Source: a virus
Lineage: Duplodnaviria > Caudoviricetes
Length of the DNA: 40,936 nt
Virus record (IMG/VR): IMGVR_UViG_3300037440_000439
Coordinates: 1 to 40,936 of that record
Strand: one strand, 5' to 3'
Shown piece after piece: positions 16,763-36,498 of the stretch. The translations under genes and the position numbers were made by a program. Under the pieces are notes generated by a model, which was not told the origin of the DNA, did not search any database, and worked only from the letters and a program-made list of their open reading frames with translations. Position 1 is the first letter of the stretch, and each line of letters begins with the position of its first letter.

Positions 16763-16898
16763 ATTATTGCAATAGTATAGGGTACTACTCCCCTATCGCA
16801 TGGGTGTGTCATTTTTTTACTTTTTACCCAAGCGCGTCGGAGTAGGGGAGTGCGGTGGGGTAGGGGAGTGGATTGTTGCATATATTTCAATTATAGGT

Positions 16899-17591: not shown

Positions 17592-18624
17592 GCAACACCT
17601 CCTCATATATTTTTTGTCGGCGCCGGATGCGCTTCATGCTTAGTTTGAATTGATTGATTATTTGCATAATCCCCAATTGATAGTAAGTGGCAAATTCATC
17701 CAAGCGGTCCGGCTCCCGACCTTCAAAAAAGGTCAACCACCATTGAACCCGGCGCTCATATTCCCGTTTTTCAAAATCGGTGGTAGGTTTGGGCTCCAAT
17801 TCGGTCGGTCCTTGCGGCTTTTCAAGGTGCATGCGGGCCAAGGGCCGGTTGTGATCATCGCGCAAAAGCCCGGAAATACCTGATGACAATGAGCCAATAT
17901 GGCACCATCCGGCTTTGCCGTCCCAAATGCTCCGCTTTTCCCGATAATGCTCTAAGTCATCCGGGTGGGTATGGTATTGACGCAATTCGGCGATTTTTTT
18001 CTTTGTGATTATAGCCCTTATTTGCAAACTGGCCTCCACAAAGGTGTCGCCGTGTTGATCGGTGTCAAAAGCCATGCCAATAGGCTCCACCACCTCACCG
18101 GCGTGCCAAAATTTGGAGCCGAAATTGTCGATTTGCTTCAAAAGCTTGGTTTCGGAGAAAAAATAGCAAGGCCAAAAATTGGGCCCCCGTTCACCATCAC
18201 CCACATCATTCAAAAGCCATTTGAACACGGCGGCTTTGTACAATTCCAAGCCGCATGATCCCCGGGGCGATCCTACTACCTCAAAACCGTGCTTTTCCAA
18301 CAACCGGAAGCCTGCCCCCACGGCCCCGGTTACAAACACAAAGGCATCATCCTCAATGAGCATGGTGTGGGTTTCCGTCACCTGGGGAAGTATGCGTTTG
18401 ATGGCTTCCCCGTGCTCTAATTGATGGTCGGTATATAGCAAGGTCACCTTGGGATCGTCGGCCACCAAATTTTTTTCATATTCCACCACCTCAGCGGCCA
18501 CCGGCGTGTTGAGGTGGATATATAACCGATCGATTTCATCACGCCAATACCATTTGAAAAGGGTGTACCAATAGTGAAGCAAAAAAGGATCGCCCGGAGT
18601 GGGTAAAATGGCGGCCCGGCTCAT
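17581..18624 (-). CDS. Putative glycosyltransferase, GT-A-like
   Basis: HGEAI...HTMLIEDDAFV (DxD-like), WPCYFF; context. Confidence 0.65.
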   Translation of the reverse strand: MSRAAILPTPGDPFLLHYWYTLFKWYWRDEIDRLYIHLNTPVAAEVVEYEKNLVADDPKVTLLYTDHQLEHGEAIKRILPQVTETHTMLIEDDAFVFVTGAVGAGFRLLEKHGFEVVGSPRGSCGLELYKAAVFKWLLNDVGDGERGPNFWPCYFFSETKLLKQIDNFGSKFWHAGEVVEPIGMAFDTDQHGDTFVEASLQIRAIITKKKIAELRQYHTHPDDLEHYREKRSIWDGKAGWCHIGSLSSGISGLLRDDHNRPLARMHLEKPQGPTELEPKPTTDFEKREYERRVQWWLTFFEGREPDRLDEFATYYQLGIMQIINQFKLSMKRIRRRQKIYEEVLHDF

Positions 18625-18806
18625 GCCCGCCCCCACTCAAATCCGCATGAGCGGCAAACATATTTGTCCGGTGGTTTGCGCTTGAAAAATATGGTGACCA
18701 AAAAAAGCATATACCACATATACCTCCGGGTCATTTGGAAAAAGCTTTCGCCGGCATATTTTTTGACGTTGCGACTTTTGCATCGCGGACACTTAGGCCC
18801 AAACAT
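18621..18806 (-). CDS. Small Zn-ribbon protein with central hydrophobic segment
   Basis: CPRC-S.NV...YMWYMLFLVTIFF...YVCRSCG; GGAGG RBS. Confidence 0.7.
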   Translation of the reverse strand: MFGPKCPRCKSRNVKKYAGESFFQMTRRYMWYMLFLVTIFFKRKPPDKYVCRSCGFEWGRA

Positions 18807-19464
18807 AATCCTCCGGGTGTATTTTGTAAAATCCGGCCAAGCCACGTGGGGTGGGGAAGTGGAAGGGCCGTAATCGGCTATGCTCGATCAATTCCCTGAT
18901 AGCGTGGGGAATTTCACCCCACGGCCAGGCAAAGCCGTGTTCGGTGTTATCAACCTGGCCCATGTGTCGGTGCAAATCATGAATGAAAATATACCCGCCG
19001 GGCTTGATGTAATCACAAAATCGGACCAATTCATTGAAGCGTAATTGCGGCTCGGTATCCAAAAGCGCCATGTCATACCGGGTACCGCGCGGCGGTTGCC
19101 ATTTGGTGGCATCGGCCTGAATGTTGTTAATTAAATGAAAAAGCTTGGCTTTTTGGAAATTTCTGGCGGCGGTGTTGTATAGCTCCGGCAAAAATTCAAG
19201 GGTGTCGATTTGAGTTTCGGCGGCAAAAGCATTGTGCGATACTGCCAAGGCCATATACACGGTGGAAATGCCCTTGTGGGTGCCGGTTTCCAAAATGCGC
19301 TTGGGCTTCAATAGCCGGACCATGGCATACAAAAATTCCCCCACCTCACATTCGACGCCGGCATCATCGAATGCTTGATAACCCAAGGCCCCGGAGCCGG
19401 AGTATTCCGATTCGGAATTGATAGCCAGTCCCAATCGGCGGGCGACTTCATCGGTGATCATCAT
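18793..19464 (-). CDS. Class I SAM-dependent (O-)methyltransferase
   Basis: KPKRILETGTHKGIS, YDMALLD, KPGGYIFIHD. Confidence 0.9.
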   Translation of the reverse strand: MMITDEVARRLGLAINSESEYSGSGALGYQAFDDAGVECEVGEFLYAMVRLLKPKRILETGTHKGISTVYMALAVSHNAFAAETQIDTLEFLPELYNTAARNFQKAKLFHLINNIQADATKWQPPRGTRYDMALLDTEPQLRFNELVRFCDYIKPGGYIFIHDLHRHMGQVDNTEHGFAWPWGEIPHAIRELIEHSRLRPFHFPTPRGLAGFYKIHPEDYVWA

Positions 19465-20452
19465 ACAAAAAATCCTCCCATTGTTTTTTTATATTGTCTT
19501 TGCCAAAAAATTCGATGGCGGTTTGGCGGCCGGTTTCGGAAATTCGGCGGGCCAATTTGATATTGGTTTTCAATTCCTGCATTTTTTGCCGTAAATATCC
19601 CAAATCATCGGAAATGAAGCCATTGTATTCATTTTGAATCAAATCGGGGATTTCGTATAGGTCCTGGGCCAAATTTAAGCTTTCGCCATGCTTGGGACCC
19701 AAGCAAATCATCGGAGCGCCGGTCATCATGGCTTCAATGAAAGTCAGGGTGTATGAGGCCGGTTGGGTGCCGGTGTATATATACCCCCGGCAATCACGAT
19801 ATTTTTGTTTCATAGCTTCATAAGTCAAAAAGCCGCCATTCAAGCTGTTGAGGGCTTCGTTTTTGGGTCCGTATACATGAGCATTGAAATCCTTGACCAA
19901 TTCCAAAAAGGCGTCCACCTGCAAAAACTCACCCCGGTGGTGCATGTCCTGGGCAAAGGTGACAAACTCCGTGCCTCCACCGATCCAATGGTTGTATTCG
20001 TTTGGGTCCTTGTAAAAGCGGATGACCGCATCGGCGCCTATATTGAAGGGGATGTTGATTTCGCGGGGCGAATAGCGGACCACCTGCAAGCCCTGATCCC
20101 GGTAGGGCCTCAGTTTTTGTTCAATTTTCCCCACCGATTGGCCAATGGTGCGCCATATGACCCGCTTGCCCTTGATAATATCCCAATTTTTGCTGATCCA
20201 ATCGGGCCGGTGCATCACCATCACCGTGTCAAACGGCTCGACCAATTCCGGGGTCAATTCATGTTGGGCGGGTAGGGGAGTGTTATATAGTTTTTTGTCG
20301 GGGGCATGTTTGAGCGGCGGCCGGATCGGATCGGCCGGCCGGGTGGGGATGACATAGGACCCCAGGGCAAAATAATCGATGCCCAATTCCTCAAACAATT
20401 TGAGTTCGTCATATTCGAGGGTGGCATGGCATGACAAATACAAAAGTTTCAT
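19448..20452 (-). CDS. Glycosyltransferase, GT-B/GT4-like
   Basis: TLTFIEAMMTGAPMI...LIQNEYNGFI...GRQTA..FF. Confidence 0.85.
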   Translation of the reverse strand: MKLLYLSCHATLEYDELKLFEELGIDYFALGSYVIPTRPADPIRPPLKHAPDKKLYNTPLPAQHELTPELVEPFDTVMVMHRPDWISKNWDIIKGKRVIWRTIGQSVGKIEQKLRPYRDQGLQVVRYSPREINIPFNIGADAVIRFYKDPNEYNHWIGGGTEFVTFAQDMHHRGEFLQVDAFLELVKDFNAHVYGPKNEALNSLNGGFLTYEAMKQKYRDCRGYIYTGTQPASYTLTFIEAMMTGAPMICLGPKHGESLNLAQDLYEIPDLIQNEYNGFISDDLGYLRQKMQELKTNIKLARRISETGRQTAIEFFGKDNIKKQWEDFLYDDHR

Positions 20453-21576
20453 ATATGCGGCTCGAGTTTTTTACTAATTTTTTTTAGTCTTTCCAACATT
20501 TTCCCACCCACAAACTCAAATGAAAATTTCGACTTTACCACTTTTTGACCTTCCAAGCCCATTTCCCGGGCCTGTTTTTGATTTTCAAATACCCACCGCA
20601 TGCCCTTGCGAATGTCATCGACTTTGACATCGGCCCATCGCTGGTCCAGGGTGTACCAAGCATCATTCCGACTATTTTTGACCGGGCAAAGGGAATAGGG
20701 GAGCAAATACGCGGTTTTTTTGTGCTCCAAATACTCATGAATACCGCCGCAATTGGTGGAAATCACCGGGTTGGCCATTAGTAATGCCTCCATTTGGGGA
20801 ATGCCCCACCCTTCGCCCCGGTGCGGCGATACATAGCAATCAAATGTGGCGTGGAAGCGGTACATTTGCCGCCGATCCATCAATTGGGTGAATAAATACA
20901 CCGGCGGATATGCTTTCACATCCACCCGGCGCTTGGCTTTTTTGATGAATGACTTGATTTCATCGAATTTGCTTGGTTGGAAATTGTCCACATAGGTTTT
21001 GATGGTCAAGGACACGCCCTTGGTGCCCTCAAATTCCCGCCAAAATGCCTCCAATAGTGCCATGGGGTTTTTGCGTTCGGTCCATTCAAAAATGGCGTAA
21101 AATTTGAAATCGTTTTGGTTGGGGATCAAATAGGGTTTTGGTTCGGGCGCGTTGGCGTCGATGGCCTCGGTGATGATGTGAATGGGTTTGGTAACGCCGG
21201 CGGCCCGGATGGCATCGGCATTGTATTGGGAGCCGGTCCAAATTTCGTCCAAAATCTCACATTTGCTGGCAAAGGCCAAGGGCAGTTTGTTGGTTTCCCA
21301 AAACACCCGGCCGACATGGTATTTGCCGGCTTCCAAATATTTCTGATAGACATTGGGAGTGACGTGCAAAATTTTGATTTTGTAGCCCAATTGCCGATTT
21401 TCGGCATCCCGTGCAATCGATCCCAATTTGCCAAAATCGGAAAGCTCAATGGTGTATTTGGGAATTTCGGTGGTGAGCACTACACCGGCGGCATGCAGGG
21501 CGCCGACATCATGCCGGCCGGCCTCACCATAGCCTGAATAGTCTGCCAAAGCGCCGGTGTATTTGACCTTCATCAA
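20449..21576 (-). CDS. Glycosyltransferase family 4
   Basis: SGYGEA, WET, RKNP, HRGEGWGIPQMEA...PVIST. Confidence 0.92.
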   Translation of the reverse strand: MMKVKYTGALADYSGYGEAGRHDVGALHAAGVVLTTEIPKYTIELSDFGKLGSIARDAENRQLGYKIKILHVTPNVYQKYLEAGKYHVGRVFWETNKLPLAFASKCEILDEIWTGSQYNADAIRAAGVTKPIHIITEAIDANAPEPKPYLIPNQNDFKFYAIFEWTERKNPMALLEAFWREFEGTKGVSLTIKTYVDNFQPSKFDEIKSFIKKAKRRVDVKAYPPVYLFTQLMDRRQMYRFHATFDCYVSPHRGEGWGIPQMEALLMANPVISTNCGGIHEYLEHKKTAYLLPYSLCPVKNSRNDAWYTLDQRWADVKVDDIRKGMRWVFENQKQAREMGLEGQKVVKSKFSFEFVGGKMLERLKKISKKLEPHI

Positions 21577-21589
21577 CGGTTGCTTTCAC

Positions 21590-21793
21590 TCAAATTTCGA
21601 TATAGTTTCCGGCATCATAGCGGATTTGTGTACCGCAATTTTGACACACCACACTTGAAAATTTTTCCTTTTTGTTGGAATAGAATGCCCGACCGGTGCA
21701 AGCGGGGCAAAAATAGCGGTATTTGGCATTTTTTTCATTCAACGGCTTGTCGGATGCCTCATTTTCGGTTTTTTTCTTGGCCACTGGTATCAC
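21590..21793 (-). CDS. Small zinc-ribbon protein
   Basis: CPAC...CQNCG. Confidence 0.65.
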   Translation of the reverse strand: MIPVAKKKTENEASDKPLNEKNAKYRYFCPACTGRAFYSNKKEKFSSVVCQNCGTQIRYDAGNYIEI

Positions 21794-21796
21794 CCC

Positions 21797-23011
21797 CTAT
21801 GTAATGCGCTTCAAATTTAATATGTTTTGTACCCGCGACTTGACGGGCAATGGTTTGCGGCGGATGTCATCAAAAATACTTTTCAATTGTTTGGCGGTGT
21901 TTTCGTAGGTGTATTTGGTGACGTATCCGGCCGCTTTTTTACCCATCGCGCGGGCTTGCTTTTCGTGTTCATACACGTGGCGCATTTGCTTTTGCAAATG
22001 CTTGGCGTCGCATACCACCATTCTACCAACATCCTGGCCCTTGTATCGCAAGTACAGGCCGGGGCATTCCTTTTCCACTTTGACTTCATACATATATTCC
22101 GGGTTGAAATATTCGGCGATCCCATGGGCATTGGGCACGATTGCCGGCATACCGGTGGCCATGGCCTCCAATGGAGGAATACCAAAACCTTCCCCACGGC
22201 TTGGAAATACAAAGCAATCCGATCGGGCCAATAGGTTTTGCATTTGTTTGGGTGAATATTTGCCGGTGATGACATCGATGTGTGGGTATTGGGTTTTGGT
22301 GATGGGAATGGGCGGCCGATCGAGGATGGTTTTGAATACCATTTTGACCGGCTCATCCGGTTCAAACTCCGACACAAAGGCATTGAAAGCTTCCATGAAT
22401 CCTTTGCGGGCATTGAAGGCGTTATAGTGCAAAAAAGTAAAATCCCGGCGGGTTTCCTTGACCGGTTGACGCTCCACTGGTTTGTAGGTGTCGGCGTCAT
22501 AACCCAAGGGCACCACCGTGGTGTCAAAGCCGGCCCGGGCAAAAGTATCCTGGCAAAATTTTGAAGGCACCAGGATCAAGTCGGCGGCCGCCAAATAGTC
22601 ATGCCATTCGTCGGGTATGCGGGTGGATTCAAACATGGTGTATATAATTCGGAAGGGTGCCTCAATTTGTAGGATGCCATAAGGTGCATGCAACAATACG
22701 GCAATATTTTGATCGTCATAGTAGGTTTTGACATCCTCACCCATTTCCTTCAAATGCCGCATGATGTGGTGGCTTGCTTCCGCGTAGCCGTTGGCCCCGG
22801 TTTGTGACACGGTGGCCATATATACCCCCATGGCCGGATCGCCCTTGGCCTGCTTTTTTTTGGCCAGGCGGTCATAGCGCTCTTGTTCATATTCCTTGAT
22901 TTCGGATTTTTTTGCTTTGCGGAAACCTTTTTGGTCAAGCCAATCGGTAAATTCCTTTTCGGTTTCGACGGCCACAATGCGGCCGAATGGGTTGACCAAG
23001 TAAAAGCTCAT
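21797..23011 (-). CDS. Glycosyltransferase family 4 with N-terminal extension
   Basis: RKG, FVFPSRGEGFGIPPLEAMATGMP. Confidence 0.93.
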   Translation of the reverse strand: MSFYLVNPFGRIVAVETEKEFTDWLDQKGFRKAKKSEIKEYEQERYDRLAKKKQAKGDPAMGVYMATVSQTGANGYAEASHHIMRHLKEMGEDVKTYYDDQNIAVLLHAPYGILQIEAPFRIIYTMFESTRIPDEWHDYLAAADLILVPSKFCQDTFARAGFDTTVVPLGYDADTYKPVERQPVKETRRDFTFLHYNAFNARKGFMEAFNAFVSEFEPDEPVKMVFKTILDRPPIPITKTQYPHIDVITGKYSPKQMQNLLARSDCFVFPSRGEGFGIPPLEAMATGMPAIVPNAHGIAEYFNPEYMYEVKVEKECPGLYLRYKGQDVGRMVVCDAKHLQKQMRHVYEHEKQARAMGKKAAGYVTKYTYENTAKQLKSIFDDIRRKPLPVKSRVQNILNLKRIT

Positions 23012-24105: not shown

Positions 24106-24822
24106 TTATTTTTGAGGGCCCGGCGTGGTGGTGCCGTACAAATCATCCTCAATGTTGCCGGTTTTCATGGCCTCCAAAATGTCTTGTTCATTTTCCCGGT
24201 AAAATACCGGGTCCTGAATTTGACTGTGTTTGAAGCGCTTGGGTTGGTCGGTTCCGCCCTTGCCTGGGTTTGTAGCACTACCAAGGGTGGTGCTCCCGGG
24301 GTCGCCAAATAGGTATTTGCGCGATTCCTTGAGCTCACCGATTGCTTCATCCACTCCGGCGACGTTGCCGTTGTCATCCAATGACACTTTGGACCGGTCA
24401 ATCAGTTTTACCACTGCATCCTGATCAACCGCGCCTTGCTTTGCGGCCGCTTGCATGATGTTCATGTCAATTACGCTCTGCCGGAATTTTTCCTGGGCTT
24501 CTTCGCGTTCTTTTTCAAGCTTTTCGACCAATTCTTCATATTTTTTTTCTTCCTTGAGCTTTTTTTCCTCAAGTTTTTTTTGTTCGGTTTCGTATTGGTC
24601 GGCCTTTTTGGCGCGTTGTGTCAGTTCTTTGAACCTTGAGTGTTGCCACAAACGCGGATCGTCAAAGACTTTTTGAAAGTCCTCATCCCCAAGTTTGCTG
24701 ACATCAAAGTTGGAATTATCGGTATCCGTTTTTTTCGCGTCCGACGCGTCCGACTTTTCCTTTTTGTTGTTAATATCGCCTGTTTTTGAATCGGAGGCAT
24801 CCGATTTTTTACCTTCTGCCAT
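24106..24822 (-). CDS. Capsid scaffolding protein
   Basis: Charged coiled coil, GAVDQDAVVKLID...KYLF; position before capsid. Confidence 0.85.
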   Translation of the reverse strand: MAEGKKSDASDSKTGDINNKKEKSDASDAKKTDTDNSNFDVSKLGDEDFQKVFDDPRLWQHSRFKELTQRAKKADQYETEQKKLEEKKLKEEKKYEELVEKLEKEREEAQEKFRQSVIDMNIMQAAAKQGAVDQDAVVKLIDRSKVSLDDNGNVAGVDEAIGELKESRKYLFGDPGSTTLGSATNPGKGGTDQPKRFKHSQIQDPVFYRENEQDILEAMKTGNIEDDLYGTTTPGPQK

Positions 24823-24880
24823 ATTTTCCCCTCAGTTGGTGTCGCGGCCTGCCCGCGCCGGGTAAATGTTATATACTGGC

Positions 24881-24910
24881 ATTATATACATTTGTCGGCG
24901 GCATGGTCAA
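24881..24910 (-). promoter_or_regulatory. Promoter for scaffold/capsid
   Basis: TTGACC-N18-TATAAT. Confidence 0.6.
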
Positions 24911-24915
24911 ACCAC

Positions 24916-24957
24916 TTGCAAATAATGTAGGATGATTGTAGTATATAGGTGGAGGTG
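24916..24957 (+). promoter_or_regulatory. Promoter and RBS of the plus-strand gene
   Basis: TTGCAA-N17-TAGTAT, then GGAGGTG 5 nt before ATG 24963. Confidence 0.7.
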
Positions 24958-24962
24958 CACAA

Positions 24963-25196
24963 ATGCCCGATTTGCCACAATACTTTGAAGTCGATTTTGA
25001 TGTTTTCGTCAAGGTTTTCAATACCGGGGTGGATGAAGTCACGGCCATCAATCATTGGGGCAATCCCTACCCCCCGATCAAAGCCATGGTCGAAGGCCGG
25101 CGAGTAGGCCGGGCAACATTTGAAAAGGCCGCCGAAAATCGTCAGGGTTTGCCCACGCCGGTGCGATCCAAGGCCGCGTCCCGGGCTTCCGAATAA
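24963..25196 (+). CDS. 77-aa protein, candidate immunity/antitoxin for the MuF-synthetase fusion
   Basis: Own promoter and strong RBS, globular-looking sequence, convergent overlap with 3' end of 25142..26566. Function is inferred. Confidence 0.7.
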   Translation: MPDLPQYFEVDFDVFVKVFNTGVDEVTAINHWGNPYPPIKAMVEGRRVGRATFEKAAENRQGLPTPVRSKAASRASE

Positions 25197-26566
25197 AGTT
25201 TCAACATTTGTTTTTCCGCTTTGCGCCATTCCGGGCCCTTGACCCGGACCACATCATATAATTTGTCGCCGCCAAGTTCGGTTTTGGCCGTCCACATTTC
25301 CTCATAAGTCACTTGCACCTCACCGATCCTGCCACCGGGCAATTTGATGTTGACCATGTTCATGGCATAGCCGGTTTCCTCATGCAATTTTTCTTTGACC
25401 CGGTGTATTTCATAGTGCTCCGATACCGATTCCACAATAGCGTCAAATTCCTTTTTGTCCCATGGGTTTCTGATAATGACGGCCCCCCGATTGGTGTCCT
25501 TGAGCTCAAAAGTTTCGGCGTTATAGTCATTGATCACTTTGTTGGTGGAGCGCTCCAATTTTTTGGGTGAGCCAATATGATGATCGACGTTGAGTTTTTT
25601 GCTGATTTTCTCAAAATTTTGCTTGAATTTTTCCTGGTGTTTTTTGGCCGGGTCGGTCATATTTTTTTTGACTTGTTCTTTGATCGGACCCCGCATCGAT
25701 TCGCCGGCGGGGTCATATGCTCCCTTCTCCGGATCGTATGCTCGGGTCATTTTGGCTATTTTGGGCACCAATACATTGATGGCATGCCGGCAATTGGGAT
25801 GAAATAAGCCGGCCCGCTCGGCATCAATCACGGTGTCATAACCTCTAGTAGCGCCGGTGGATGACAGGACCTTGCCTTGCCAGGGAAGGCACAAGGGGCA
25901 TGAGCTTTTACCATGATTTGATACCTGCACCAAATCATACCCATTTTCCACCAGTCGATTGGCGATTCCCCGATTGCGGGTTTCCACCACCTTGGTCCGG
26001 AAAAGCATTTCGGAATATCGATCGAGGGTCCATGACCGACCGCCCCGATCCACGATGGCGGCCAATCCATCCTCCATCAATCGGCCCTTCATTTCCCGCT
26101 TAACATTGCGCAAAGCCGCCCCGGAAACCATGCCGGAGGCCATTTTTTGGGTGAGGGCTTCCCGGGAAAAGCGGCCCAACAACAATTGGGCATTCCGGTC
26201 CACGCCCACCAAGCCCTCGGCGAATGCTTTGGCGGTTTCATCCACCAGGGCGGCGATGGCATCCTTGTGGATTTGGTTGAAACCGGTTTCCACCGCCACC
26301 GGTGCCCGGACATTCTTCAATTGCTTGACCGCATCGTCGGCGCCCAATTCGTAATACTCGGGAATTTCCTGTTTGATCCAATCGTTGGTATTTTCACCAA
26401 GCTCGGACAAAATGACCTCAATTTGTTTGAGGATTTTTTTGCGGTTTTGTACACCCCAATCGGTGGCGCCAGCGATTTCGCCCACAATATCCTTGTATGC
26501 GGCTTTATAGGTGCCGATAATTTTTTGGAGGTTTTTTTCGTTGACCTCGACTTCCAAAGGATACAT
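25142..26566 (-). CDS. Minor head (MuF-like/minor capsid) protein fused to C-terminal RelA/SpoT-like synthetase domain
   Basis: N-part: DRGGRSW, DLVQVSNH..CPLC.PWQGKV, GLFHPNCRH. C-part: K..ERS..KV..DY, LKD..R, GY, GEVQV, KLY...R. Confidence 0.85.
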   Translation of the reverse strand: MYPLEVEVNEKNLQKIIGTYKAAYKDIVGEIAGATDWGVQNRKKILKQIEVILSELGENTNDWIKQEIPEYYELGADDAVKQLKNVRAPVAVETGFNQIHKDAIAALVDETAKAFAEGLVGVDRNAQLLLGRFSREALTQKMASGMVSGAALRNVKREMKGRLMEDGLAAIVDRGGRSWTLDRYSEMLFRTKVVETRNRGIANRLVENGYDLVQVSNHGKSSCPLCLPWQGKVLSSTGATRGYDTVIDAERAGLFHPNCRHAINVLVPKIAKMTRAYDPEKGAYDPAGESMRGPIKEQVKKNMTDPAKKHQEKFKQNFEKISKKLNVDHHIGSPKKLERSTNKVINDYNAETFELKDTNRGAVIIRNPWDKKEFDAIVESVSEHYEIHRVKEKLHEETGYAMNMVNIKLPGGRIGEVQVTYEEMWTAKTELGGDKLYDVVRVKGPEWRKAEKQMLKLYSEARDAALDRTGVGKP

Positions 26567-26571
26567 ATTGG

Positions 26572-28095
26572 CTACTCATTTCCCTGATCCTGGTCATCAT
26601 TCTGGCCGGCCGGTTGAAAATTGGGCGTCAATTTCATGCCCTCAAATGCTTTTTTGGATTCGTCATCGGCTTCCTTGAGCATTTCCTTGGCCGATTCTTC
26701 ATCCACTTGGTTGATGGTCATAATGGCGGCCTTTTTGGATTTGAGGCCGGCATCGACCTGCATCACTTCATCGGTGATCATTTCGGTGCCATCGATCGGC
26801 AAGCCGTCGGACCATTCAAGCTCGGGCATCATGGGATCGCCTTGCAATGATTTGCCGTCGATTTTGATGTTGTATTGCTTGGCCAATACTTGGGCCTTGT
26901 ACAATACCCGCTTGATGGCGGTGTCATAATACAATTTTTTCCGGGCGACTTTGGCAATGGTTCGCATCAATTTGAATTTGAGGGCCCGGCCGGAATCGGA
27001 TTGGCCCTCACCCATGCCCAATACATCCGGTGACACTTCCCCGATCATGTAAATAAATTCGACCAATTTTTCAATTTCACTGAAAGCGTTTTCCAAGGAC
27101 GCGTCCCAAGTAATGTATGTCGGTTGGCCGGATTCGCCTTCCTCAATTTCAATCACTCCCAATGACTTTTTCTTGACCCGCCCTTTTTCATCCAATATGC
27201 CCGGCGGCACGGCCAGGATCGGGTCGGAGTGTTTGTCTAAAATGTTGTCAACCTTGCTCATGCGGTTGTTGATGGCAAAAAATAGGGAATCCAAATCATA
27301 GTAATCGGAAATGCCAAAATACAATGAGCCGGTTTTCCAATTGGGGACATGCTCCAATAAGTTGAAATTGACCTCGGTTTTTTCCAGGTTTTTCAAATCA
27401 TCGATGCCAAGCATGCCCAAATCCACTTCCTTGTCGATTTTTTCACCCTTCATCAAAAATAGTTTGTTTTCAATTTGGCCCCGGGTGTGGATTTCCTGCC
27501 GCAAGTAGTAATCCTTGCCAATTTTAATTTTCCAAGCCAAAGTTTCCACCGCCGGCCGCTCCCTGACATTGAAATTTGATACTTCGGGGAAATATATATT
27601 TGGGGTGATGTCCTCAATGATGACCGTCGATTGGTCCTGTTCAAAATCCTTTTTGCCGATCCGCAATTTGAAAATCCCGTCACCTTTGTATGAATTTGAC
27701 AAAGCCGATTCATATAGTTGGGTGTCGAGGTTGTTGGTTTTCCACAAGTTTTCCACAAATTCCTGGTCGCCCTCGGGCATGCGCACCTTCACAGGCTCCG
27801 AAAAAAGCATATCGGCCACAATTTTGGTGATCATGCCGGCGAAATTGACTTTGATATACCGCAAGTCGGCCCACCGGCGATTGAAATGTTCGTCATCGAT
27901 GGCCATGTTGAATGCGCTGAAATGTTGGCCCAAAAAAAGCTTTTCGTAGTATTCATACCCACCGATCCGGGCTTTGGATGCGTCATCGGGCCAGGCCGGT
28001 TTGGTTTTGGCCGTCAAATCAGCATCAACCTTTTCCGCTTCACTTTTTGTGGGTCCATCCATTCTGGGCTCTGTGTCGGAATAGTCATCAACCAT
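26572..28095 (-). CDS. Portal protein, SPP1 gp6-like
   Basis: VNFAGMI, HVPN...GISDY, YITWD, SGRALK; follows TerL. Confidence 0.92.
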   Translation of the reverse strand: MVDDYSDTEPRMDGPTKSEAEKVDADLTAKTKPAWPDDASKARIGGYEYYEKLFLGQHFSAFNMAIDDEHFNRRWADLRYIKVNFAGMITKIVADMLFSEPVKVRMPEGDQEFVENLWKTNNLDTQLYESALSNSYKGDGIFKLRIGKKDFEQDQSTVIIEDITPNIYFPEVSNFNVRERPAVETLAWKIKIGKDYYLRQEIHTRGQIENKLFLMKGEKIDKEVDLGMLGIDDLKNLEKTEVNFNLLEHVPNWKTGSLYFGISDYYDLDSLFFAINNRMSKVDNILDKHSDPILAVPPGILDEKGRVKKKSLGVIEIEEGESGQPTYITWDASLENAFSEIEKLVEFIYMIGEVSPDVLGMGEGQSDSGRALKFKLMRTIAKVARKKLYYDTAIKRVLYKAQVLAKQYNIKIDGKSLQGDPMMPELEWSDGLPIDGTEMITDEVMQVDAGLKSKKAAIMTINQVDEESAKEMLKEADDESKKAFEGMKLTPNFQPAGQNDDQDQGNE

Positions 28096-28115: not shown

Positions 28116-29681
28116 TCAAAGGGGATTTTTTTCAAACACCCGGCCGCCGCGCGGTTTGCGTCGGATCATTTGAATGGCGATCATGCCGGCAAATAACGCG
28201 TCATCGTGTTTGCCGTCGGCATGTTCCCGCTTGCCGTTGGGTTTTTTGACAAAGGTGCGCATTTCATTCAAGGTGATCGGGGAATTGATCCCCAATTCGC
28301 CTTGCTCAAATAAAATATTAAATTCGTCAATCATCACATCCCGGGTTTTCAAATTGGTATTCCACCCCAATTTTTTGGTCCGCTTCATGGTTTTTTGATC
28401 GATTTTGGTTTCAAAATAGTACCGGTCATATATTTTTGACAAAAATAGGATGGTGGTGAGCATGTTGTTTTCCACGCCGACATAGGCCCGTTGGTAAAAT
28501 TCGGCCATGTCCCGGGTGAGCTCCGACAATTCATCCGGCCGCAATTTGCCATAGTATTGGGCCACCTGCTCATATTTTTCGGTCCATACGTCAATACATG
28601 AAAAGTCGGCCCCGTCACCGTCGGATGGGTCCACGCCGATGTAGTATTTTTTGGCCGGCACCGGCAATTCCCAAAATTTGACCCGCATTTTGACCAATGA
28701 TTGCAGGGCCTTGTCCTGTTTAATTTTGTCCGGTGAGGCATGGTTGATGGCCGGATTTCGCAAGGGTATTTTGATTTTGACGGCATCCAAGCGCTCCGAA
28801 TCAAACACCGCCCCCACGCCGGATTGGAATGCTTCCGCTACGGTTGACGGATATTCCTGTTTGAATAATTGCTCCGGGCTCAAACCTTCCCCAATGATGT
28901 CGGCCTTCAATTCCTGCATTTTCCACCGGCGCCATACCAATTGGCCATCAGTCAAATCATGTTGGGTTTGCAGGTCGATTTCGGTTTTGGTTTTGTCATC
29001 GTCGGGAATTGCTCCCGGCAAGGCATAGTCGGGATTTTCAAACCAAGGGAAAAAATGGGTTTTATAATCGGTCGGGGCCAGGCTTTGTTTGTGATAGTAA
29101 CCCATGAAAAAGTCATAAAATTCATTGAAGCCGTTGCCGGTGGTTTCCTCGGTGATGCGGCCGGTTTTGGGCACCGCTTGTTTGGAGCCGGCCACCAATT
29201 CGGCCCGGTCCTTGATGTAAGCCGATTCGGACACGTGCAATCGTTGCACCGTACCGGATCGCAATTTGAGGGCCACATATATGCTTGAATCCAAGGGGAA
29301 GCCATCAAAGCGGTGGGTGAAGCGGTACATGCGAATGGTGTCGGTTTTGGTTTCCGGCTTGATTTCGTCGGGCATGTTGGTATATGCCCGTTTGACTATT
29401 TGGAAAATTTCATCGAGAGCCGCCCGCTCATGGGCAATGATGGCGCAAGCCGTACCGGGCACCCAGAGTGATTCGTCCAAAAGGTCGATGCAAGCATCGG
29501 TGGTGAAGCCGAATTGGCGGGCCTTCAAAATCGCATTGTATTGATGGCCGCCGCGTTGGGCCCAATAGCGGTATTGCATTTGGTTGGGCCGGAAGGTGAC
29601 TAATTCGCCCGCTTTATTCTTGATTTTGTATAGGTGGTGCATCCTCCACCACTTGTCCTTGAGCCTTTGATCCAATTTCAT
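28116..29681 (-). CDS. terL: Terminase large subunit
   Basis: Walker A ILKARQFGFTT, Walker B LHVSESA, ETTGNG, nuclease IGVD and HDDALFA; start re-called at MKLDQ. Confidence 0.96.
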   Translation of the reverse strand: MKLDQRLKDKWWRMHHLYKIKNKAGELVTFRPNQMQYRYWAQRGGHQYNAILKARQFGFTTDACIDLLDESLWVPGTACAIIAHERAALDEIFQIVKRAYTNMPDEIKPETKTDTIRMYRFTHRFDGFPLDSSIYVALKLRSGTVQRLHVSESAYIKDRAELVAGSKQAVPKTGRITEETTGNGFNEFYDFFMGYYHKQSLAPTDYKTHFFPWFENPDYALPGAIPDDDKTKTEIDLQTQHDLTDGQLVWRRWKMQELKADIIGEGLSPEQLFKQEYPSTVAEAFQSGVGAVFDSERLDAVKIKIPLRNPAINHASPDKIKQDKALQSLVKMRVKFWELPVPAKKYYIGVDPSDGDGADFSCIDVWTEKYEQVAQYYGKLRPDELSELTRDMAEFYQRAYVGVENNMLTTILFLSKIYDRYYFETKIDQKTMKRTKKLGWNTNLKTRDVMIDEFNILFEQGELGINSPITLNEMRTFVKKPNGKREHADGKHDDALFAGMIAIQMIRRKPRGGRVFEKNPL

Positions 29682-30060
29682 CGTATTTTGATTGTAAGGC
29701 ATCCAATACGTCGCCCACCTGTTCATCATCGATGCGGTGCTCGACCGTTTGTTCATCCTTGACACCTAGCAATTTTGCCTTTTCCCGGTGCATGCGCCAA
29801 TCATCATGGCCTGATTTTTCCATGCCTTCGATGGATTTGGCCAGGGCGGTTTTGATGGCCTGCCGGGCCAATGGGTGCCTTTTCCACCGCATGATCGTGT
29901 GGCGCGATACCCCCAAAGCTTGGGCCAGGATCGACCAATTTTCAATGTTTGATTCCCCGATCGCTTTCAAAAATTCCTCAAATTCCTCGGTATTGTATGG
30001 GTCCTTGGGCGGGTCCATTGATTTCGATTTCGGTGCATTTGTTGCGTTGGCCTCAGTCAT
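29614..30060 (-). CDS. terS: Terminase small subunit (HTH)
   Basis: LAQALGVSRHTIMRW helix-turn-helix; overlaps the terL start; TATAAT 6 nt upstream of the ATG. Confidence 0.7.
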   Translation of the reverse strand: MTEANATNAPKSKSMDPPKDPYNTEEFEEFLKAIGESNIENWSILAQALGVSRHTIMRWKRHPLARQAIKTALAKSIEGMEKSGHDDWRMHREKAKLLGVKDEQTVEHRIDDEQVGDVLDALQSKYDEIGSKAQGQVVEDAPPIQNQE

Positions 30061-30078
30061 ACTACAATTATACACAAT

Positions 30079-30288
30079 TTAATTGACGCCGTATTTTACC
30101 TGATAGCAATGTTCATGCACCACGCCCCTGGCCCACACATCAACGTCATAGGGCGATAGCGTCACCGATCGGCCGTCATTCAAACCTTCCAAATATGCTT
30201 CATCGACAATATATCGAAATCCATCATCCGGCCCGACCATCCGATGACAATGCAAGCAAATCCAAAAAGTGTCCACCAATTCCGCCAT
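30079..30288 (-). CDS. Small Cys/His metal-binding protein
   Basis: CLHC...VHEHCY; GAGG RBS. Confidence 0.6.
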   Translation of the reverse strand: MAELVDTFWICLHCHRMVGPDDGFRYIVDEAYLEGLNDGRSVTLSPYDVDVWARGVVHEHCYQVKYGVN

Positions 30289-30289
30289 G

Positions 30290-30847
30290 CTACATCCTCA
30301 AGCGGTTCAAATGCAATAAATAATCCCGAAACGGCCGCAAGTGCCGGGATTTGACAAAATGATAGGGGATTTCCTGGCCGGAGCGGCTGTTGAGGATTGC
30401 CGCTTCGCTTTGGTCCCAAAAATCATCGGCCTCAATAATGCCGTATATATGGGCACCGGTCCAATCCGGCTCGACGTAAGTGAATACATAGTGGCTTTCC
30501 TGTTTGACTTGGTGATGGTCGAATACCAACATGGTTTGATTGTAAAAGTATTCCGGTGAGTAGGTTTTGCGGTGGCTTTTGATTTCCAAAAAATCGTCCT
30601 CATATTGAATGTCGAAGGGGTCGCCGCCGTGGTATTTTTCCCGCAAAGTGCTGACATGTTCGAGGCCCAAATCGGCAATATATTGTTCGACTGCCAAATG
30701 GCCCAAAAAGCCGGTGACGTTTTTGGTGTTTGATAGGTTGACGGTGTTCTGGCCGTCATTTTTGATGTCCGAATATTCCGCCCATTGGTAAGCTTCACTG
30801 ACCTGCCCTTCTGTAAAGCTTAGGCGGATGACGTCATTTTCGCGCAC
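30290..30847 (-). CDS. Restriction-endonuclease-fold (PD-(D/E)xK-like) protein
   Basis: GFLGHLAV...GDPFDI....FLEIKS pattern. Confidence 0.55.
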   Translation of the reverse strand: MRENDVIRLSFTEGQVSEAYQWAEYSDIKNDGQNTVNLSNTKNVTGFLGHLAVEQYIADLGLEHVSTLREKYHGGDPFDIQYEDDFLEIKSHRKTYSPEYFYNQTMLVFDHHQVKQESHYVFTYVEPDWTGAHIYGIIEADDFWDQSEAAILNSRSGQEIPYHFVKSRHLRPFRDYLLHLNRLRM

Positions 30848-30995
30848 CCGCTTTGTTGCGGGCGAAAGCTTGCTTGCGTTTCACTCGGCACGGTTTGCAC
30901 CGTTTTGGCGGTACAAAGCCACGCTCGAAAAAAAACTCTTGCTCGCCGGTGGTCCACAAAAACTCATTGCCGCAATCGGTGCAGGTCAAATACAC
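30834..30995 (-). CDS. zf-trcl-type zinc-ribbon protein (not in ORF track)
   Basis: Manual translation: VYLTCTDCGNEFLWTTGEQEFFFERGFVPPKRCKPCRVKRK...; start uncertain. Confidence 0.8.
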   Translation of the reverse strand: MYLTCTDCGNEFLWTTGEQEFFFERGFVPPKRCKPCRVKRKQAFARNKAGARK

Positions 30996-31036
30996 GTCAT
31001 GATTTTTTGGCTCCTCCGGCTCTGGCTGTCCGGGTA

Positions 31037-31405
31037 TTATTGCCCCCCGTAATTACTAATTGATATTTCCACGCTCCAGTCATCACGATTGGGGTGTTTT
31101 TCGTATGATCCCCGCATCACCAATTCGTCATCGGTGAGGATGCCCACGTGTTGCAACACATCCAAAATTGAGGTGTGCAAATTGTCACCATCCACCCGGT
31201 ATTTGCCCTTGATGTATAGGTCGGTGTGGACGGACACTTGGCCGGTGAAGCGCTTGAGTTTGGCGTGTTGCATCAATTGATAGGTGGCTTCACTCAAAAA
31301 ATTTTCATAGCGCGCGGACGGGACCAGGAATTTTTTGCCGCCGCGTTTGATCCATCGCCGGGAATTTTTTTTGCTAATCGGCCGCAATTGCAAAATGTAT
31401 TTCAT
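31037..31405 (-). CDS. rusA: RusA-like Holliday junction resolvase
   Basis: SKKN, RVDGDNL...ILDVL...GILTDD. Confidence 0.85.
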   Translation of the reverse strand: MKYILQLRPISKKNSRRWIKRGGKKFLVPSARYENFLSEATYQLMQHAKLKRFTGQVSVHTDLYIKGKYRVDGDNLHTSILDVLQHVGILTDDELVMRGSYEKHPNRDDWSVEISISNYGGQ

Positions 31406-31569
31406 ATATAGTCAATCGGAGTATTTAATATTGGCGGGCATTGCTCCAAAATGAAGCGGTTTTGAGTTTCGGTGCGTCGATTCAATTCGCCGATGATCAC
31501 ATTTTGTATGATCCCGATGCCCACCAAAAAGGATACGGCAAAAATAATAAACCAATCGTAATTATTCAT
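31402..31569 (-). CDS. Small single-TM protein
   Basis: MNNYDWFIIFAVSFLVGIGII; ATGA overlap with rusA. Confidence 0.55.
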   Translation of the reverse strand: MNNYDWFIIFAVSFLVGIGIIQNVIIGELNRRTETQNRFILEQCPPILNTPIDYI

Positions 31570-31638
31570 GTGACATGAAAAAAAACTCAAACCACACCCG
31601 CAAAGATTGCCGGATGGCCTGCCACAAGGATTTTTGCC

Positions 31639-31851
31639 TCATGCTTCACCCCTATTTTCTAAATAATATGCAAGTAAATTGCCGCCGTCATCACTCATGG
31701 CGATTTGGGCCAGGGCCCGCAATTCATGCGATCCCCACCCGGTTTCCCGGCTCAATGCGTCGATCGCGTCGGAATTGGAAATACCTATGCGCTCCAATTG
31801 TCGGCGGGCCTCATCCGGGTCCAAATGCCGGTCCAAATGTTCAAGTCCCAT
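31639..31851 (-). CDS. Hypothetical protein
   Basis: Start re-called at MGLEHLD, overlapping the end of 31841..32035. Confidence 0.55.
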   Translation of the reverse strand: MGLEHLDRHLDPDEARRQLERIGISNSDAIDALSRETGWGSHELRALAQIAMSDDGGNLLAYYLENRGEA

Positions 31852-32035
31852 CGGTTTTTTCCTCAAGGTCGGATTCGGTTGGTTGATAGTCTGGCTCAAG
31901 CTCCACAAAACCATCCCGCTTGCCAATGGCGTTTTCGATTTCCCTGGCCGTGGGTCGCCGCCGGCCAAATACGTCACTTTCATTGGATTGGTCCTTGTAG
32001 GTTTCCTTGAGCCGCCGGTGAAATTCGGGGCCCAT
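31841..32035 (-). CDS. Hypothetical protein (leaderless)
   Basis: TTGACC-N18-TATCAT (32042..32071), 6 nt to ATG. Confidence 0.55.
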   Translation of the reverse strand: MGPEFHRRLKETYKDQSNESDVFGRRRPTAREIENAIGKRDGFVELEPDYQPTESDLEEKTDGT

Positions 32036-32067
32036 ATATACATGATATGCTTTTGCTCATTTGCCGG

Positions 32068-32349
32068 TCAATACTTTTTGATGAGGTTGAGGATGTCGTC
32101 GATTGCTTCGTCGTAACCTACTGCCCTAGCTATTTCTGGCAACCACAGTTTCCATTTTTCTCGTTCCCCTTTTCGCATCCCCTCCACCTCCCTCTCTAGT
32201 TGGGTGAGGAGGTCGGAAATGAAGTGTTTAACTTGTTCTCCTGCCTCAGTTTCAGTCAGATTTTTAGCGGGGGTATCCATCATCGTCCTCCAAAACTCAT
32301 CAAACCTTTTTTGCCAGTCTATTACGTCTTTTAACATAGGGGGTTTCAT
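32068..32349 (-). CDS. Hypothetical protein
   Basis: 93 aa, ATGA-coupled; ends GYDEAIDDILNLI. Confidence 0.65.
   Translation of the reverse strand: MKPPMLKDVIDWQKRFDEFWRTMMDTPAKNLTETEAGEQVKHFISDLLTQLEREVEGMRKGEREKWKLWLPEIARAVGYDEAIDDILNLIKKY
32321..32345. repeat. 25-bp direct repeat, copy 1
   Basis: ATTACGTCTTTTAACATAGGGGGTT, also at 32875..32899. Confidence 0.95.
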
Positions 32350-32525
32350 TTTTCTTCCTTTGGAAATAAGCCTTTAATTGCATCAATCATTTCGTCAAAC
32401 TCCTGTTGAGTGGCGTATTTACTTTTTCGAAAGTAAATGACTGGGTACGCTGATTTTTCACCATAAATACCCAAGTATTCGTTTTTACGCCCTAACTTGC
32501 TAAAGAATATCCTAATCGGTTTCAT
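32346..32525 (-). CDS. 59-aa hypothetical protein (not in ORF track)
   Basis: Manual translation MKPIRIFFSKLGRKNEYLGIY...GLFPKEEK; fills the gap exactly. Confidence 0.7.
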   Translation of the reverse strand: MKPIRIFFSKLGRKNEYLGIYGEKSAYPVIYFRKSKYATQQEFDEMIDAIKGLFPKEEK

Positions 32526-32777
32526 TTATTTACCAACATACTGTTCTTTATAAAATAAAGTCATAGACACAACTTGTTTAACGATTTGCCTAATCTCTGG
32601 CTTGAGTTTTTCATATTCATAAGAGCCAGCGTGTTTCTTATGAAAGAGGTCTTGTACCATTGAGTTTATCGTTGAGAACTCTGTCCATTGGGACTGGGTG
32701 AATATGCCACCAATCACGTGCTTCCTGCCCATCATTACATCAACCCACTCGTCATATAAATACTCGTCTTTGGTCAT
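32526..32777 (-). CDS. Hypothetical protein
   Basis: AGGAGG RBS, 83 aa. Confidence 0.7.
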   Translation of the reverse strand: MTKDEYLYDEWVDVMMGRKHVIGGIFTQSQWTEFSTINSMVQDLFHKKHAGSYEYEKLKPEIRQIVKQVVSMTLFYKEQYVGK

Positions 32778-32795
32778 ACTTCCTCCTATTTATTG

Positions 32796-33044
32796 CTAAT
32801 TACCTTTACCAATAACTTTACTAATCCTCCAGTTCATTACAAACTCCTCCTCAAATTCTCTATCAAGCTGGTCCATTACGTCTTTTAACATAGGGGGTTG
32901 TTGTCCTCTGGTAGCCATACCAACAATAACTGAAAATAGGTTTTCGGCCACGTTTTTCCATTCCCGCATAGGTTTGTCGTCGTCGCCAATCAATATATGC
33001 CTCATTTCGTTGATTTCCTCAAAATCGAATGGTTTTTTACTCAT
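32796..33044 (-). CDS. Hypothetical protein, possibly chimeric
   Basis: Carries internally the PPMLKDV peptide that begins 32068..32349. Confidence 0.6.
   Translation of the reverse strand: MSKKPFDFEEINEMRHILIGDDDKPMREWKNVAENLFSVIVGMATRGQQPPMLKDVMDQLDREFEEEFVMNWRISKVIGKGN
32875..32899. repeat. 25-bp direct repeat, copy 2
   Basis: Identical to 32321..32345. Confidence 0.95.
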
Positions 33045-33598
33045 ACTGCAAACCTTTCATATAATTTATTTTCGATTAAATAATTGTTCATGTCGGAAGC
33101 ATAGGACAAAATCCAATTGTGGGCAGTTTTCAATAATTCATCGGTCAACCAAATCAGGCTCATGTCGGTTTTTTTTGAATATTGATCATAGTGGTAAATA
33201 ATGGCTCGATCGGCATACATGCCGGAAAAAGTAGCCAAAACACCGTATATACCCGGTTGCATGCTTCCCGCGTATACCTCACTTGATGTTTTCCCGGTTT
33301 TCCAATCGTAAATCACCGGTTTGTCATACAAATCAATTACCCCGACCAAATCCAACCACGGCTCAAGCTCGACCACCTTTTTGATTTCGGCCTTTGGATG
33401 GTGGAGCGCTCCGGCGCCAAACACCGCCGGTAGTGTTTTGGTGTCATTGATGTGGTTTTCCCACTTTTCGTGCCATATTTTGCCATCGGCCATCGCCGGG
33501 GTAACAAATTTTTCCAGTTTGAAATAGGTTTTGATGGCTCGATCCCAATTGCCCGAGGCCCATTGATTCAAAACCGTATAAGATGCCCGGAATTTCAT
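33041..33598 (-). CDS. PD-(D/E)xK exonuclease (RecB/Cas4-like), likely recombinase partner
   Basis: SYT.L..W, G..WH, LVGVIDL...IYDWKTG, Q..IY; GGAGG RBS before MKFRASY. Confidence 0.8.
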   Translation of the reverse strand: MKFRASYTVLNQWASGNWDRAIKTYFKLEKFVTPAMADGKIWHEKWENHINDTKTLPAVFGAGALHHPKAEIKKVVELEPWLDLVGVIDLYDKPVIYDWKTGKTSSEVYAGSMQPGIYGVLATFSGMYADRAIIYHYDQYSKKTDMSLIWLTDELLKTAHNWILSYASDMNNYLIENKLYERFAV

Positions 33599-34005
33599 TT
33601 TTTCCTCCCGATGTGAATTTTTTTGGAGCGCTCGACTTCTTTGATCCCGGCCGGCATCCCCTTGTGGGTTTCGGTCCATTCGTCCACGGCCTTGGTGTTG
33701 ACCGAGTAGCGCTTGCTGATTTTGTATAATTCCGGGTCAAGCTGATCGACCATTTTTTCATCGACATAATACCGGGGGCCATATGCCCGGTAGGTGATTT
33801 TGATTTTGTCGCCTTGAATTGATGAAAAATTCGGATCGAGTTTCAAACCGGCGGCCTCGACCTTGGCTTTGGCATCCTCAACGGCTCGATCCACCTGATC
33901 CTGAATGTCCAACAATTGCTCCAAAACGTCCTCACCGGCCGGGGTCAAAAAAATGTCATCGGCCTTTTTGGTCAAGCTTTTGAGCTTTTCAATGTCAATG
34001 TTCAT
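33595..34005 (-). CDS. Hypothetical recombination-module protein (gp157/Gam-like)
   Basis: Coiled-coil N-half, ...GMPAGIKEVE...I.I C-terminal pattern. Confidence 0.55.
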   Translation of the reverse strand: MNIDIEKLKSLTKKADDIFLTPAGEDVLEQLLDIQDQVDRAVEDAKAKVEAAGLKLDPNFSSIQGDKIKITYRAYGPRYYVDEKMVDQLDPELYKISKRYSVNTKAVDEWTETHKGMPAGIKEVERSKKIHIGRKK

Positions 34006-35239: not shown

Positions 35240-35268
35240 ATTGTAGTGTATTTGTAGTATGGTGTCAA
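35240..35268 (-). promoter_or_regulatory. Leaderless sigma70 promoter with tandem TGTAGT(A/G)T boxes
   Basis: TTGACA-N17-TACAAT, 7 nt to ATG; boxes at 35242 and 35253. Confidence 0.75.
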
Positions 35269-35678
35269 TCATGCCAAAATACCGATTTGCGTTTGTATGC
35301 CGATCGGCGCCCGGGTGGCCATGGGTTCATGCGGCTTAGGTTGTGCATCCGATCGGCGAATTTGATCACCATAGCTTCGGTGGAGCGCAAATTGGGGAAA
35401 TTGCCTTTTTCATCCTTGGTCAATTCCACTACGTAGCCGGTGATGATGTCGCCGAAGTTTTGGCGCAAATTGACCTCATTGACCTCCGGGCAATCCTCAA
35501 GGATGTCATGCAAATATGCGGCGGCGATAGCGGCGTTGTGTTTGGGCCAAACCTGCATCACCAATTTGGCCACCGCATCACAATGGGCAAAATGTGGCTT
35601 GCCGTCATCATCCACCTGGGCCCGGTGGTAGTACCGGGCCCATTCAATGGCCTTGGCGACGGTTTTTTCGTCGGTCAT
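35265..35678 (-). CDS. HD-domain small alarmone hydrolase-like protein (Mesh1/SpoT HD type)
   Basis: H..Q....G.P...H...VA, AAYLHDILED, FG..I...V..LTK, IKFADRMHN; start re-called at MTDEK. Confidence 0.9.
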   Translation of the reverse strand: MTDEKTVAKAIEWARYYHRAQVDDDGKPHFAHCDAVAKLVMQVWPKHNAAIAAAYLHDILEDCPEVNEVNLRQNFGDIITGYVVELTKDEKGNFPNLRSTEAMVIKFADRMHNLSRMNPWPPGRRSAYKRKSVFWHD

Positions 35679-36031
35679 TGGCTCATACTTTCGTATTCGG
35701 TCCACGTTTCGGTGCGGTCGTGCAATGACAACGGGTATGAGTTGGGAAATCGCGAATCGTGCGAGTGGACGTAATCACCCCCGCTCATCCAACCGGTGTG
35801 GCCATCGGGTGTTTTGGCCACCGGCTCGGCGTGTTTGTAAGTCCGACCCCCGATGGTCCGGGTGACCAGTTTGAGTACCGGCCGTTCGTCTTTGGTGATG
35901 TCGTCCTCGGACCATGGCCCGGTTTCGCATTCCAAATATGCCTCGGTGGCCGGCCGGCATGCGTTCATGTCGTCGGACCCATACCGGCTATGTAATACTT
36001 CGACGGTCAAATACCGTTTTGCATTGGTCAT
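35675..36031 (-). CDS. Hypothetical protein
   Basis: 118 aa, WMSGGDYVHSHDSRF...PLSLHDR; tightly coupled. Confidence 0.75.
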   Translation of the reverse strand: MTNAKRYLTVEVLHSRYGSDDMNACRPATEAYLECETGPWSEDDITKDERPVLKLVTRTIGGRTYKHAEPVAKTPDGHTGWMSGGDYVHSHDSRFPNSYPLSLHDRTETWTEYESMSQ

Positions 36032-36469: not shown

Positions 36470-36498
36470 ATACTACAGTTATACTACACCAAAGTCAA
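36470..36498 (-). promoter_or_regulatory. Early promoter with tandem TGTAGTAT boxes
   Basis: TTGACT-N17-TAGTAT; boxes at 36470 and 36481. Confidence 0.7.

Follow-up and report, generated by a model that had tools for sequence, protein, structure and literature searches.

How an alarmone-synthesizing enzyme joined to a phage head protein is used, and how the phage avoids poisoning its own infection, is the question raised by a gene in the viral record IMGVR_UViG_3300037440_000439. Fusions of MuF proteins with RelA/SpoT domains, and the hypothesis that they are injected, are already in print (PMC5576092, PMC5512222, PMC10083569, PMC12226406), and the homolog list of PMC12691689 names entries as minor capsid protein in at least two places. 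What MuF alarmone toxins do physiologically is stated to be unknown (PMC12226406). We analysed the whole stretch of 40,936 nucleotides, referred to as the window; statements taken from cited articles refer to the available parts of their texts.

The phage genome and its setting

The window comprises a complete phage genome, in which a terminal repeat runs from offset 38,384 to the end with one mismatch (arms 1-2552 and 38385-40936), which gives a unit genome of 38,384 bases; the record is nonetheless classed as linear, and a 37,829-base contig, possibly the window's own source, bridges the repeat. The 10 metagenome runs listed as carrying the sequence are from sediment; none of them is an RNA run, and five are marked as possible sources of the window. 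A contig from a run without that mark covers 24234-26538 with 0 differences. Nearly all genes are on the minus strand, including those for terminase, portal, the MuF fusion, scaffold, capsid, a glycosyltransferase cluster, tail and lysis (Table 1). Searches against cultured phages returned no match to the toxin domain, and their matches to the MuF and capsid proteins were all below 60% identity (24-36% among the matches listed), so that no host was found.

Table 1 Features of the window discussed in the text
Feature	Position	Strand	Basis or remark
Scaffold protein	24106..24822	-	Pfam and PHROG
Candidate sigma-70-type promoter (TTGCAA-17-TAGTAT, 8/12) and GGAGG of the antisense gene	24916..24955	+	read from the sequence
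77-aa gene convergent with the fusion gene; likely immunity protein of the Tis1/IapK kind	24963..25196	+	co-occurrence, position, weak fold match
MuF2 minor head protein fused to alarmone-synthetase domain, 474 aa	25142..26566	-	Pfam, PHROG, PDB profile, structure model
Tas1-like synthetase domain, residues 301-474	25145..25666	-	PDB profile, model, residue conservation
MuF2 / Phage_min_cap2 domain, residues 41-271	25754..26446	-	PF06152, E 1e-25
SPP1-type portal	26572..28095	-	Pfam and PHROG; directly upstream of muf
HD_4 small alarmone hydrolase, likely second immunity gene	35265..35705	-	Pfam HD_4; likely start ATG 35678, 137 aa
Sigma-70-like site TTGACT-17-TAGTAT	36470..36498	-	heads the small-gene run containing the hydrolase; 4 sites found versus 3.0 expected in the region

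Several other regions deserve description. RecT, a PD-(D/E)XK nuclease and RusA are encoded in 29614-37767; a polymerase, helicase, primase or initiator was not recognised there, nor was a replication enzyme in the genome, with Pfam and PHROG. Between the capsid and head-tail genes (15698-23011, minus strand) lies a cluster conserved in G001, a related complete genome, which encodes at least two glycosyltransferases (a third is weak), a methyltransferase and three unassigned proteins of 235-354 aa, and which is possibly involved in capsid glycosylation. Inside the head module, 8462-13873 (minus strand) encodes a repetitive 1803-aa protein with a MAM domain; its G001 counterpart has 984 aa, and one run shows a 42-base deletion at 10884-10927. 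The genes starting at 15670, 16762, 23011 and 28095 have a TATAAT-like word a few bases 5' of the start codon and no ribosome site, and may be leaderless, possibly a clue to the host. The small-gene patch at 32071-32821 contains short pieces common to other contigs and differs at 9 places in one strain.

A minor head protein carrying a synthetase domain

The gene had originally been predicted to encode a minor head protein fused to a RelA/SpoT-type alarmone synthetase, and the two domains were indeed recovered, a PF06152 domain followed after a linker of about 30 residues by an alarmone-synthetase domain. PF06152 corresponds to the MuF2 domain of PMC5576092, and PHROG minor head families also match the protein. 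Every synthetase motif quoted in the prediction is present in the order claimed. The extension beyond the HPNCRH motif is a tail of 213 aa, whose final 174 residues make up the synthetase domain. Its key residues are K335, R339, K343, D357, R360, Y400, E416 and Q418.

Pfam made no RelA_SpoT call in the fusion protein itself, and 23 of 72 aligned homologs match this family. The best PDB sequence match of the domain is Tas1 (6ox6_A), with E 0.16 for the single sequence and 2e-5 for a 4-sequence profile, which agrees with the proposed relation to Apk2/Tas1 in that Tas1 is the closest solved sequence. The fold of the C-terminal domain had been named as the point to check, and the model (pLDDT 94.6, 72-row alignment) led to small alarmone synthetases, Tas1 included, by both Foldseek and VIA. 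Foldseek placed SaEAS first (E 6e-7) and Tas1 second (E 1.2e-6, with the highest identity, 20%), and each of the best 26 matches listed, to E 1e-3, belongs to the RelA/SpoT family. By VIA the top 12 entries were all small synthetases with Z of 13.4-15.5, against at most 7.6 for polymerase-beta folds; the alignment with Tas1 gave Z 14.4 and rmsd 3.5 over 157 aligned residues with 22% identity, compared with 11-18% for the other top small alarmone synthetase (SAS) entries.

Relatives of the domain were taken as the best 150 of 181 from a representative search, and conservation was counted over 165 aligned rows. K335 is kept in 163 of these, K343 in 162, D357 in 163, R360 in 161, Y400 in 155 and E416 in all 165. 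The domain could instead be a catalytically dead appendage that binds nucleotides or DNA, a reading to which the departures at position 404 (see below) and at position 434 (Asp in the window protein, His in 102 of 165 rows) would lend themselves. Against it, each core catalytic residue is present in 17 or in all 18 of the other MuF2 members and a partner gene is strictly retained, and we consider a dead domain very improbable. Because the fold is that of a synthetase and the near-invariant catalytic positions are all kept, we regard the domain as real and, judging from sequence and model, very probably active.

A convergent gene at the end of the toxin gene

A small gene on the opposite strand, preceded by a GGAGG ribosome site, overlaps the end of the toxin gene by 55 bp. 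Homologs of it were found in all eight distinct fusion loci with downstream DNA (the window, L002, L004, L005, L084, L085, L087 and L100, with duplicate fetches of one contig merged), where they are convergent with the toxin gene and overlap its stop by 4-55 bp; locus L099 is outside this count since its contig stops less than 50 bases past the toxin stop. No homolog was found in the 76 synthetase-less MuF loci among L001-L081, some of which end near the MuF gene. The protein collection contains 25 proteins of this family.

The model of the 77-aa protein (pLDDT 84) has Tis1 (6ox6_B) as its first but weak Foldseek match (E 0.97, TM 0.41). Against 48,161 chains Tis1 was again first, with Z 4.0, tied with unrelated entries at 3.5. 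The Pfam Tis1 model matched none of 24 family members, PDB sequence searches with the antisense family did not find Tis1, and a structure search of the Atlas returned a cluster with 25% Tis1_ImmP at row 6, below the naming bar. The argument for immunity is therefore built on position and co-occurrence, because the Tis1 fold scores are too weak alone, and we consider the protein likely to be a Tis1/IapK-like immunity protein.

The candidate promoter of this gene was at chance level when taken alone (34% of shuffles) and was not listed by the promoter scan. Summed over the regions upstream of the eight convergent genes, sigma-70 scores reached 71 compared with 59.9 for base-shuffled sequence (1 in 2000), a sum over loci that are related to each other and of which L005 is the only one clear alone. 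Two minus-strand open reading frames (ORFs) were also tried as immunity genes and rejected: 24882-25229 has no family match (Pfam, PHROG) and no G001 counterpart, and 24869-25051 has no G001 counterpart. A different arrangement was observed in L093, where 7535-10874 (plus strand) encodes a 1012-aa protein with the synthetase domain at its end, followed by a same-strand 96-aa ORF whose likeness to the antisense family is weak (18 columns, probability 12%, E 0.0023); this contig is binned in a bacterial MAG, and its neighbourhood is phage-like in look.

An unlinked gene for a likely alarmone hydrolase

The second candidate antidote gene is located 8.7 kb upstream of the fusion gene, among non-structural genes, and its product is a stand-alone RelA/SpoT hydrolase domain with the HD motif. 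HD_4 is present in both complete fusion genomes (G000 and G001) and in none of the four synthetase-less relatives whose genomes are at least 90% complete. G001 is syntenic with the window genome and 33-79% identical over shared genes, and this pattern may reflect a single gain because G000 and G001 are close kin. Another 15 records, four of them fusion-bearing, had no HD_4 match, and being fragmentary they are uninformative.

In both hydrolase homologs, an Asp is aligned to TtRel R43 and matches Aph1 D24. Aph1 D116 and R119 are not matched, Ser and Asn/Gln being found at these positions, which were located by counting from the Asn that aligns with TtRel N150 and not by direct alignment to Aph1. 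The hydrolase thus holds one of three mappable base-specificity residues of Aph1, and it scores better against Rel/SpoT domains (1.7e-15) than against Aph1 (3.9e-6). Lytic phages are described as carrying such hydrolases for other reasons (PMC12846349). The HD_4 protein is likely an alarmone hydrolase, and its gene likely a second immunity gene.

Which nucleotide the enzyme uses

The GxN signature is absent from the window protein, in which M404 is aligned with the Asn of Tas1 (N370); Asn occupies this column in none of the 18 other MuF2 members and in 6 of 165 rows. In place of the RYT, GxN and YH of the Streptococcus pneumoniae Apk2 signature, the protein has RGA, MNM and VT. Tas1 itself shows only GxN of these three, and the guanine motif of RSH enzymes, SxH, is also absent (M402-N403-M404). 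A neighbouring residue, N406, is Asn in 128 of 165 rows and 17 of the 18 other MuF2 members, and our guess from the alignment is that it might stand in for the missing Tas1-type Asn.

Adenine is favoured as the acceptor base because of the closeness to Tas1, the Tis1-like partner, the Asp of the hydrolase and the lack of SxH, given that Tis1-type antitoxins accompany (pp)pApp makers (PMC11782079). The original prediction had left the product open, and the two partner genes, which it did not mention, speak for (p)ppApp. The substrate is uncertain since GxN, RYT and YH are missing and the fold scores are tied with those of (p)ppGpp enzymes. The alternative is that delivery and immunity are unchanged and the acceptor is GTP/GDP, a mixture or the tRNA end, with a stringent-like response or a translation block as the outcome. 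It draws on the missing signature (PMC12226406), on VIA Z values to (p)ppGpp SAS enzymes (15.5-14.8) that are as high as or slightly above the 14.4 to Tas1, on a hydrolase nearer Rel/SpoT than Aph1 and on the (p)ppGpp made by some exported Apk1 relatives (PMC12691689). It has to contend with the absence of SxH as well, with Tas1 as the closest sequence, and with a partner that looks Tis1-like and whose listed fold matches include no antitoxin of the zinc-finger type that goes with tRNA-modifying toxins. We find a non-adenine acceptor doubtful, and on the features above the fusion enzyme probably uses adenine nucleotides.

Relatives and origin of the fusion

The synthetase is present on 5 of the 81 MuF loci L001-L081 (four distinct contigs), and the other MuF loci shown have short tails or unrelated C-terminal extensions on the same MuF. 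Other extensions on related MuF proteins were observed in L017, L018, L021, L059, L060, L067, L070 and L075. By eye, we take these eight to be metallopeptidase-, ADP-ribosyltransferase-, kinase- and nuclease-like. The same synthetase domain is also found in proteins of at least 700 aa, which make up 87 of 164 rows; in a large-protein group (P0021-P0077, 700-4500 aa), the 30 scanned included four with PHROG internal virion protein, three with LPD38 and one with ART-PolyVal matches.

A quick tree built from 164 domains separates the 19 MuF2 fusions from the rest by one branch (SH-aLRT 98); their surroundings in it are mostly large proteins, and they lie apart from the GYSG-type group. In a subset of 39 rows, a single group of 10 MuF2 rows with P0153, P0095 and P0083 was rejected (p-AU 1e-6), a grouping picked after the first tree; these three proteins were judged by eye to be MuF-fused and to stand in for Bacteroides-type Apk2, and neither tree includes a characterised Apk2. 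The trees suggest that the MuF2 fusions likely arose by a separate fusion event.

Comparison with known systems

By analogy, the system most likely works like Apk2, in which a MuF-fused (p)ppApp synthetase is accompanied by IapK and Aph1. Apk2 with IapK/BcTis1 and Aph1 likewise joins MuF to a Tas1-like synthetase beside the portal and has an HD hydrolase in the same phage; its small neighbour is Tis1-like, as the 77-aa protein may be (PMC10083569, PMC12226406). In Apk2, however, the toxin gene is followed by iapK and aph1 within a single operon, whereas here the immunity gene is on the opposite strand and the hydrolase 8.7 kb away; the hydrolase is sometimes missing from Apk2 loci (PMC10083569). 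The window hydrolase is moreover not Aph1-like, the GxN/RYT/YH signature and an integrase are lacking, and in the trees the domain of the window clade stands apart from three other Tas1-like proteins fused to MuF. We did not file the system as a member of Apk2, because its activity is predicted only and both the signature and the operon layout differ.

Tas1 (Apk1)-Tis1 of P. aeruginosa (PDB 6OX6) provides the closest solved toxin sequence and the top fold match of the partner, and the equivalents of Tas1 R330, E382 and Q384 are kept as R360, E416 and Q418. Tas1 differs in its PAAR/T6SS delivery, in N370 where Met is found here, and by an identity of only 20-22%. The MuF polymorphic toxins likewise have muf directly downstream of the portal, variable C-termini among relatives and a small ORF at the toxin end, but are reported in temperate phages only (PMC5576092). 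Most of the nearest neighbours in the tree are large proteins with several domains, LPD38 or ART-PolyVal among them in some cases, and resemble the phage polyvalent proteins with RelA/SpoT domains, whereas the window protein has two domains and dedicated partner genes (PMC5512222). FaRel with AT2faRel and ATfaRel resembles the proposed system in that a (pp)pApp toxin has two antidotes, one binding and the other hydrolysing, but forms a three-gene operon and has no virion carrier (PMC11782079).

What appears to be new relative to Apk2 is a seemingly separate fusion, an immunity gene in antisense orientation, a hydrolase encoded elsewhere in the genome and, in both complete genomes, no integrase. 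Our literature searches gave no earlier report of an immunity gene convergent with the toxin gene, of a hydrolase unlinked to it or of a carrier phage free of integrase; supplements, figures or further papers may hold one.

Lifestyle of the carrier

The original prediction had also noted the lack of a visible lysogeny module, which agrees with our searches: the complete genomes G000 and G001 have no match to PF00589, PF00239, PF07508 or PF01381 (tyrosine integrase, resolvase, serine recombinase, HTH_3), with positive controls for these families in 14, 12, 2 and 14 of 14 genomes. The missing integrase and repressor families do not prove a lytic life. In PMC5576092, no MuF with a known toxin domain was found in virulent phages, and MuF toxins were reported from temperate phages only.

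An unrecognised mode of persistence, plasmid-like or as a carrier, would make the system an ordinary weapon of the Apk2 type for lysogens, in which the antisense promoter would simply protect carrier cells as long as the head operon is not expressed. The reported restriction to temperate phages (PMC5576092) and a separately transcribed immunity gene fit such a carrier, many small genes of the window genome have no family match, and G006, a complete relative with a short MuF and no synthetase, encodes a 235-aa tyrosine recombinase (G006:C1:26001-26381). Arguing the other way, besides the four absent families, no partition gene was found among 50 ORFs scanned with Pfam and PHROGs, and a GTDB scan gave one locus only, a distant non-MuF protein; we judge persistence unlikely. 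In contigs of 4 of the 10 runs, with partial coverage in three, no long phage piece entering other DNA was seen among the pieces listed.

A proposed course of infection

The explanation that we consider best, and about which our judgement is evenly balanced, is that a capsid-borne synthetase enters with the DNA, makes (p)ppApp from ATP/ADP and is stopped by the antisense immunity protein and the hydrolase. The fusion would be produced late, from the head operon of terminase, portal and muf, and the 77-aa protein would hold the new toxin inactive by plugging its acceptor site, as Tis1 does. One to three copies might then be packaged at the portal and later ejected, as with SPP1 gp7, which is portal-bound in one to two copies (PMC5576092), and 80alpha gp44, described as an ejection protein. 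Arriving before any antidote, the toxin would cause a pulse of (p)ppApp and a dip in ATP, which the antisense gene, with its own promoter outside the head operon, and the hydrolase would end once expressed from the incoming DNA. The likely use would lie in holding up host responses during entry, or in poisoning cells that fail to allow phage gene expression.

The adenylate pool amounts to a few million molecules. The turnover of Apk1 is 180,000 per minute (PMC12691689), and at a similar rate a few copies could drain the pool within minutes. A phage that treats its own host in this way has to be able to stop the toxin quickly, which the two genes at separate places would allow. The weakest step is the early expression of the antidotes, because the late scaffold gene beats both antidotes in its sigma-70 match. 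Its site, at 24881-24910 and divergent from the antisense gene, matches at 11/12 positions compared with 8/12 for the antisense gene, and sigma-70-like sites are thus no marker of early genes here.

Packaging and delivery are what we infer by analogy. The enzyme could also work only in the producing cell, late, being cleaved off or left behind at packaging; the linker of about 30 residues between the domains would allow for this, and Apk2 protein in virions was not found reported in the available parts of the literature. The swapping of C-terminal domains on MuF and the occurrence of the same domain in internal-virion and polyvalent proteins both point to selection for delivery, which makes action in the producing cell alone quite improbable.

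Implications for MuF toxins

Published models of MuF toxins rest on lysogeny (PMC5576092), and an integrase-free version with antidotes on separate transcription units would distinguish these models from an action of the toxin during entry. The clade of 19 proteins also offers a test of the sequence rules for (p)ppApp versus (p)ppGpp synthesis because neither motif fits, and screens restricted to a co-oriented downstream ORF would miss a convergent immunity gene. Our boldest reading, which is tentative and on the doubtful side, is that a non-integrating phage clade injects a timed pulse of alarmone toxin and cancels it with two antidotes encoded outside the head operon, and that the acceptor pocket may yield a nucleotide other than (p)ppApp. 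If true, this would break the reported temperate-only rule for MuF toxins and implicate these toxins in lytic takeover.
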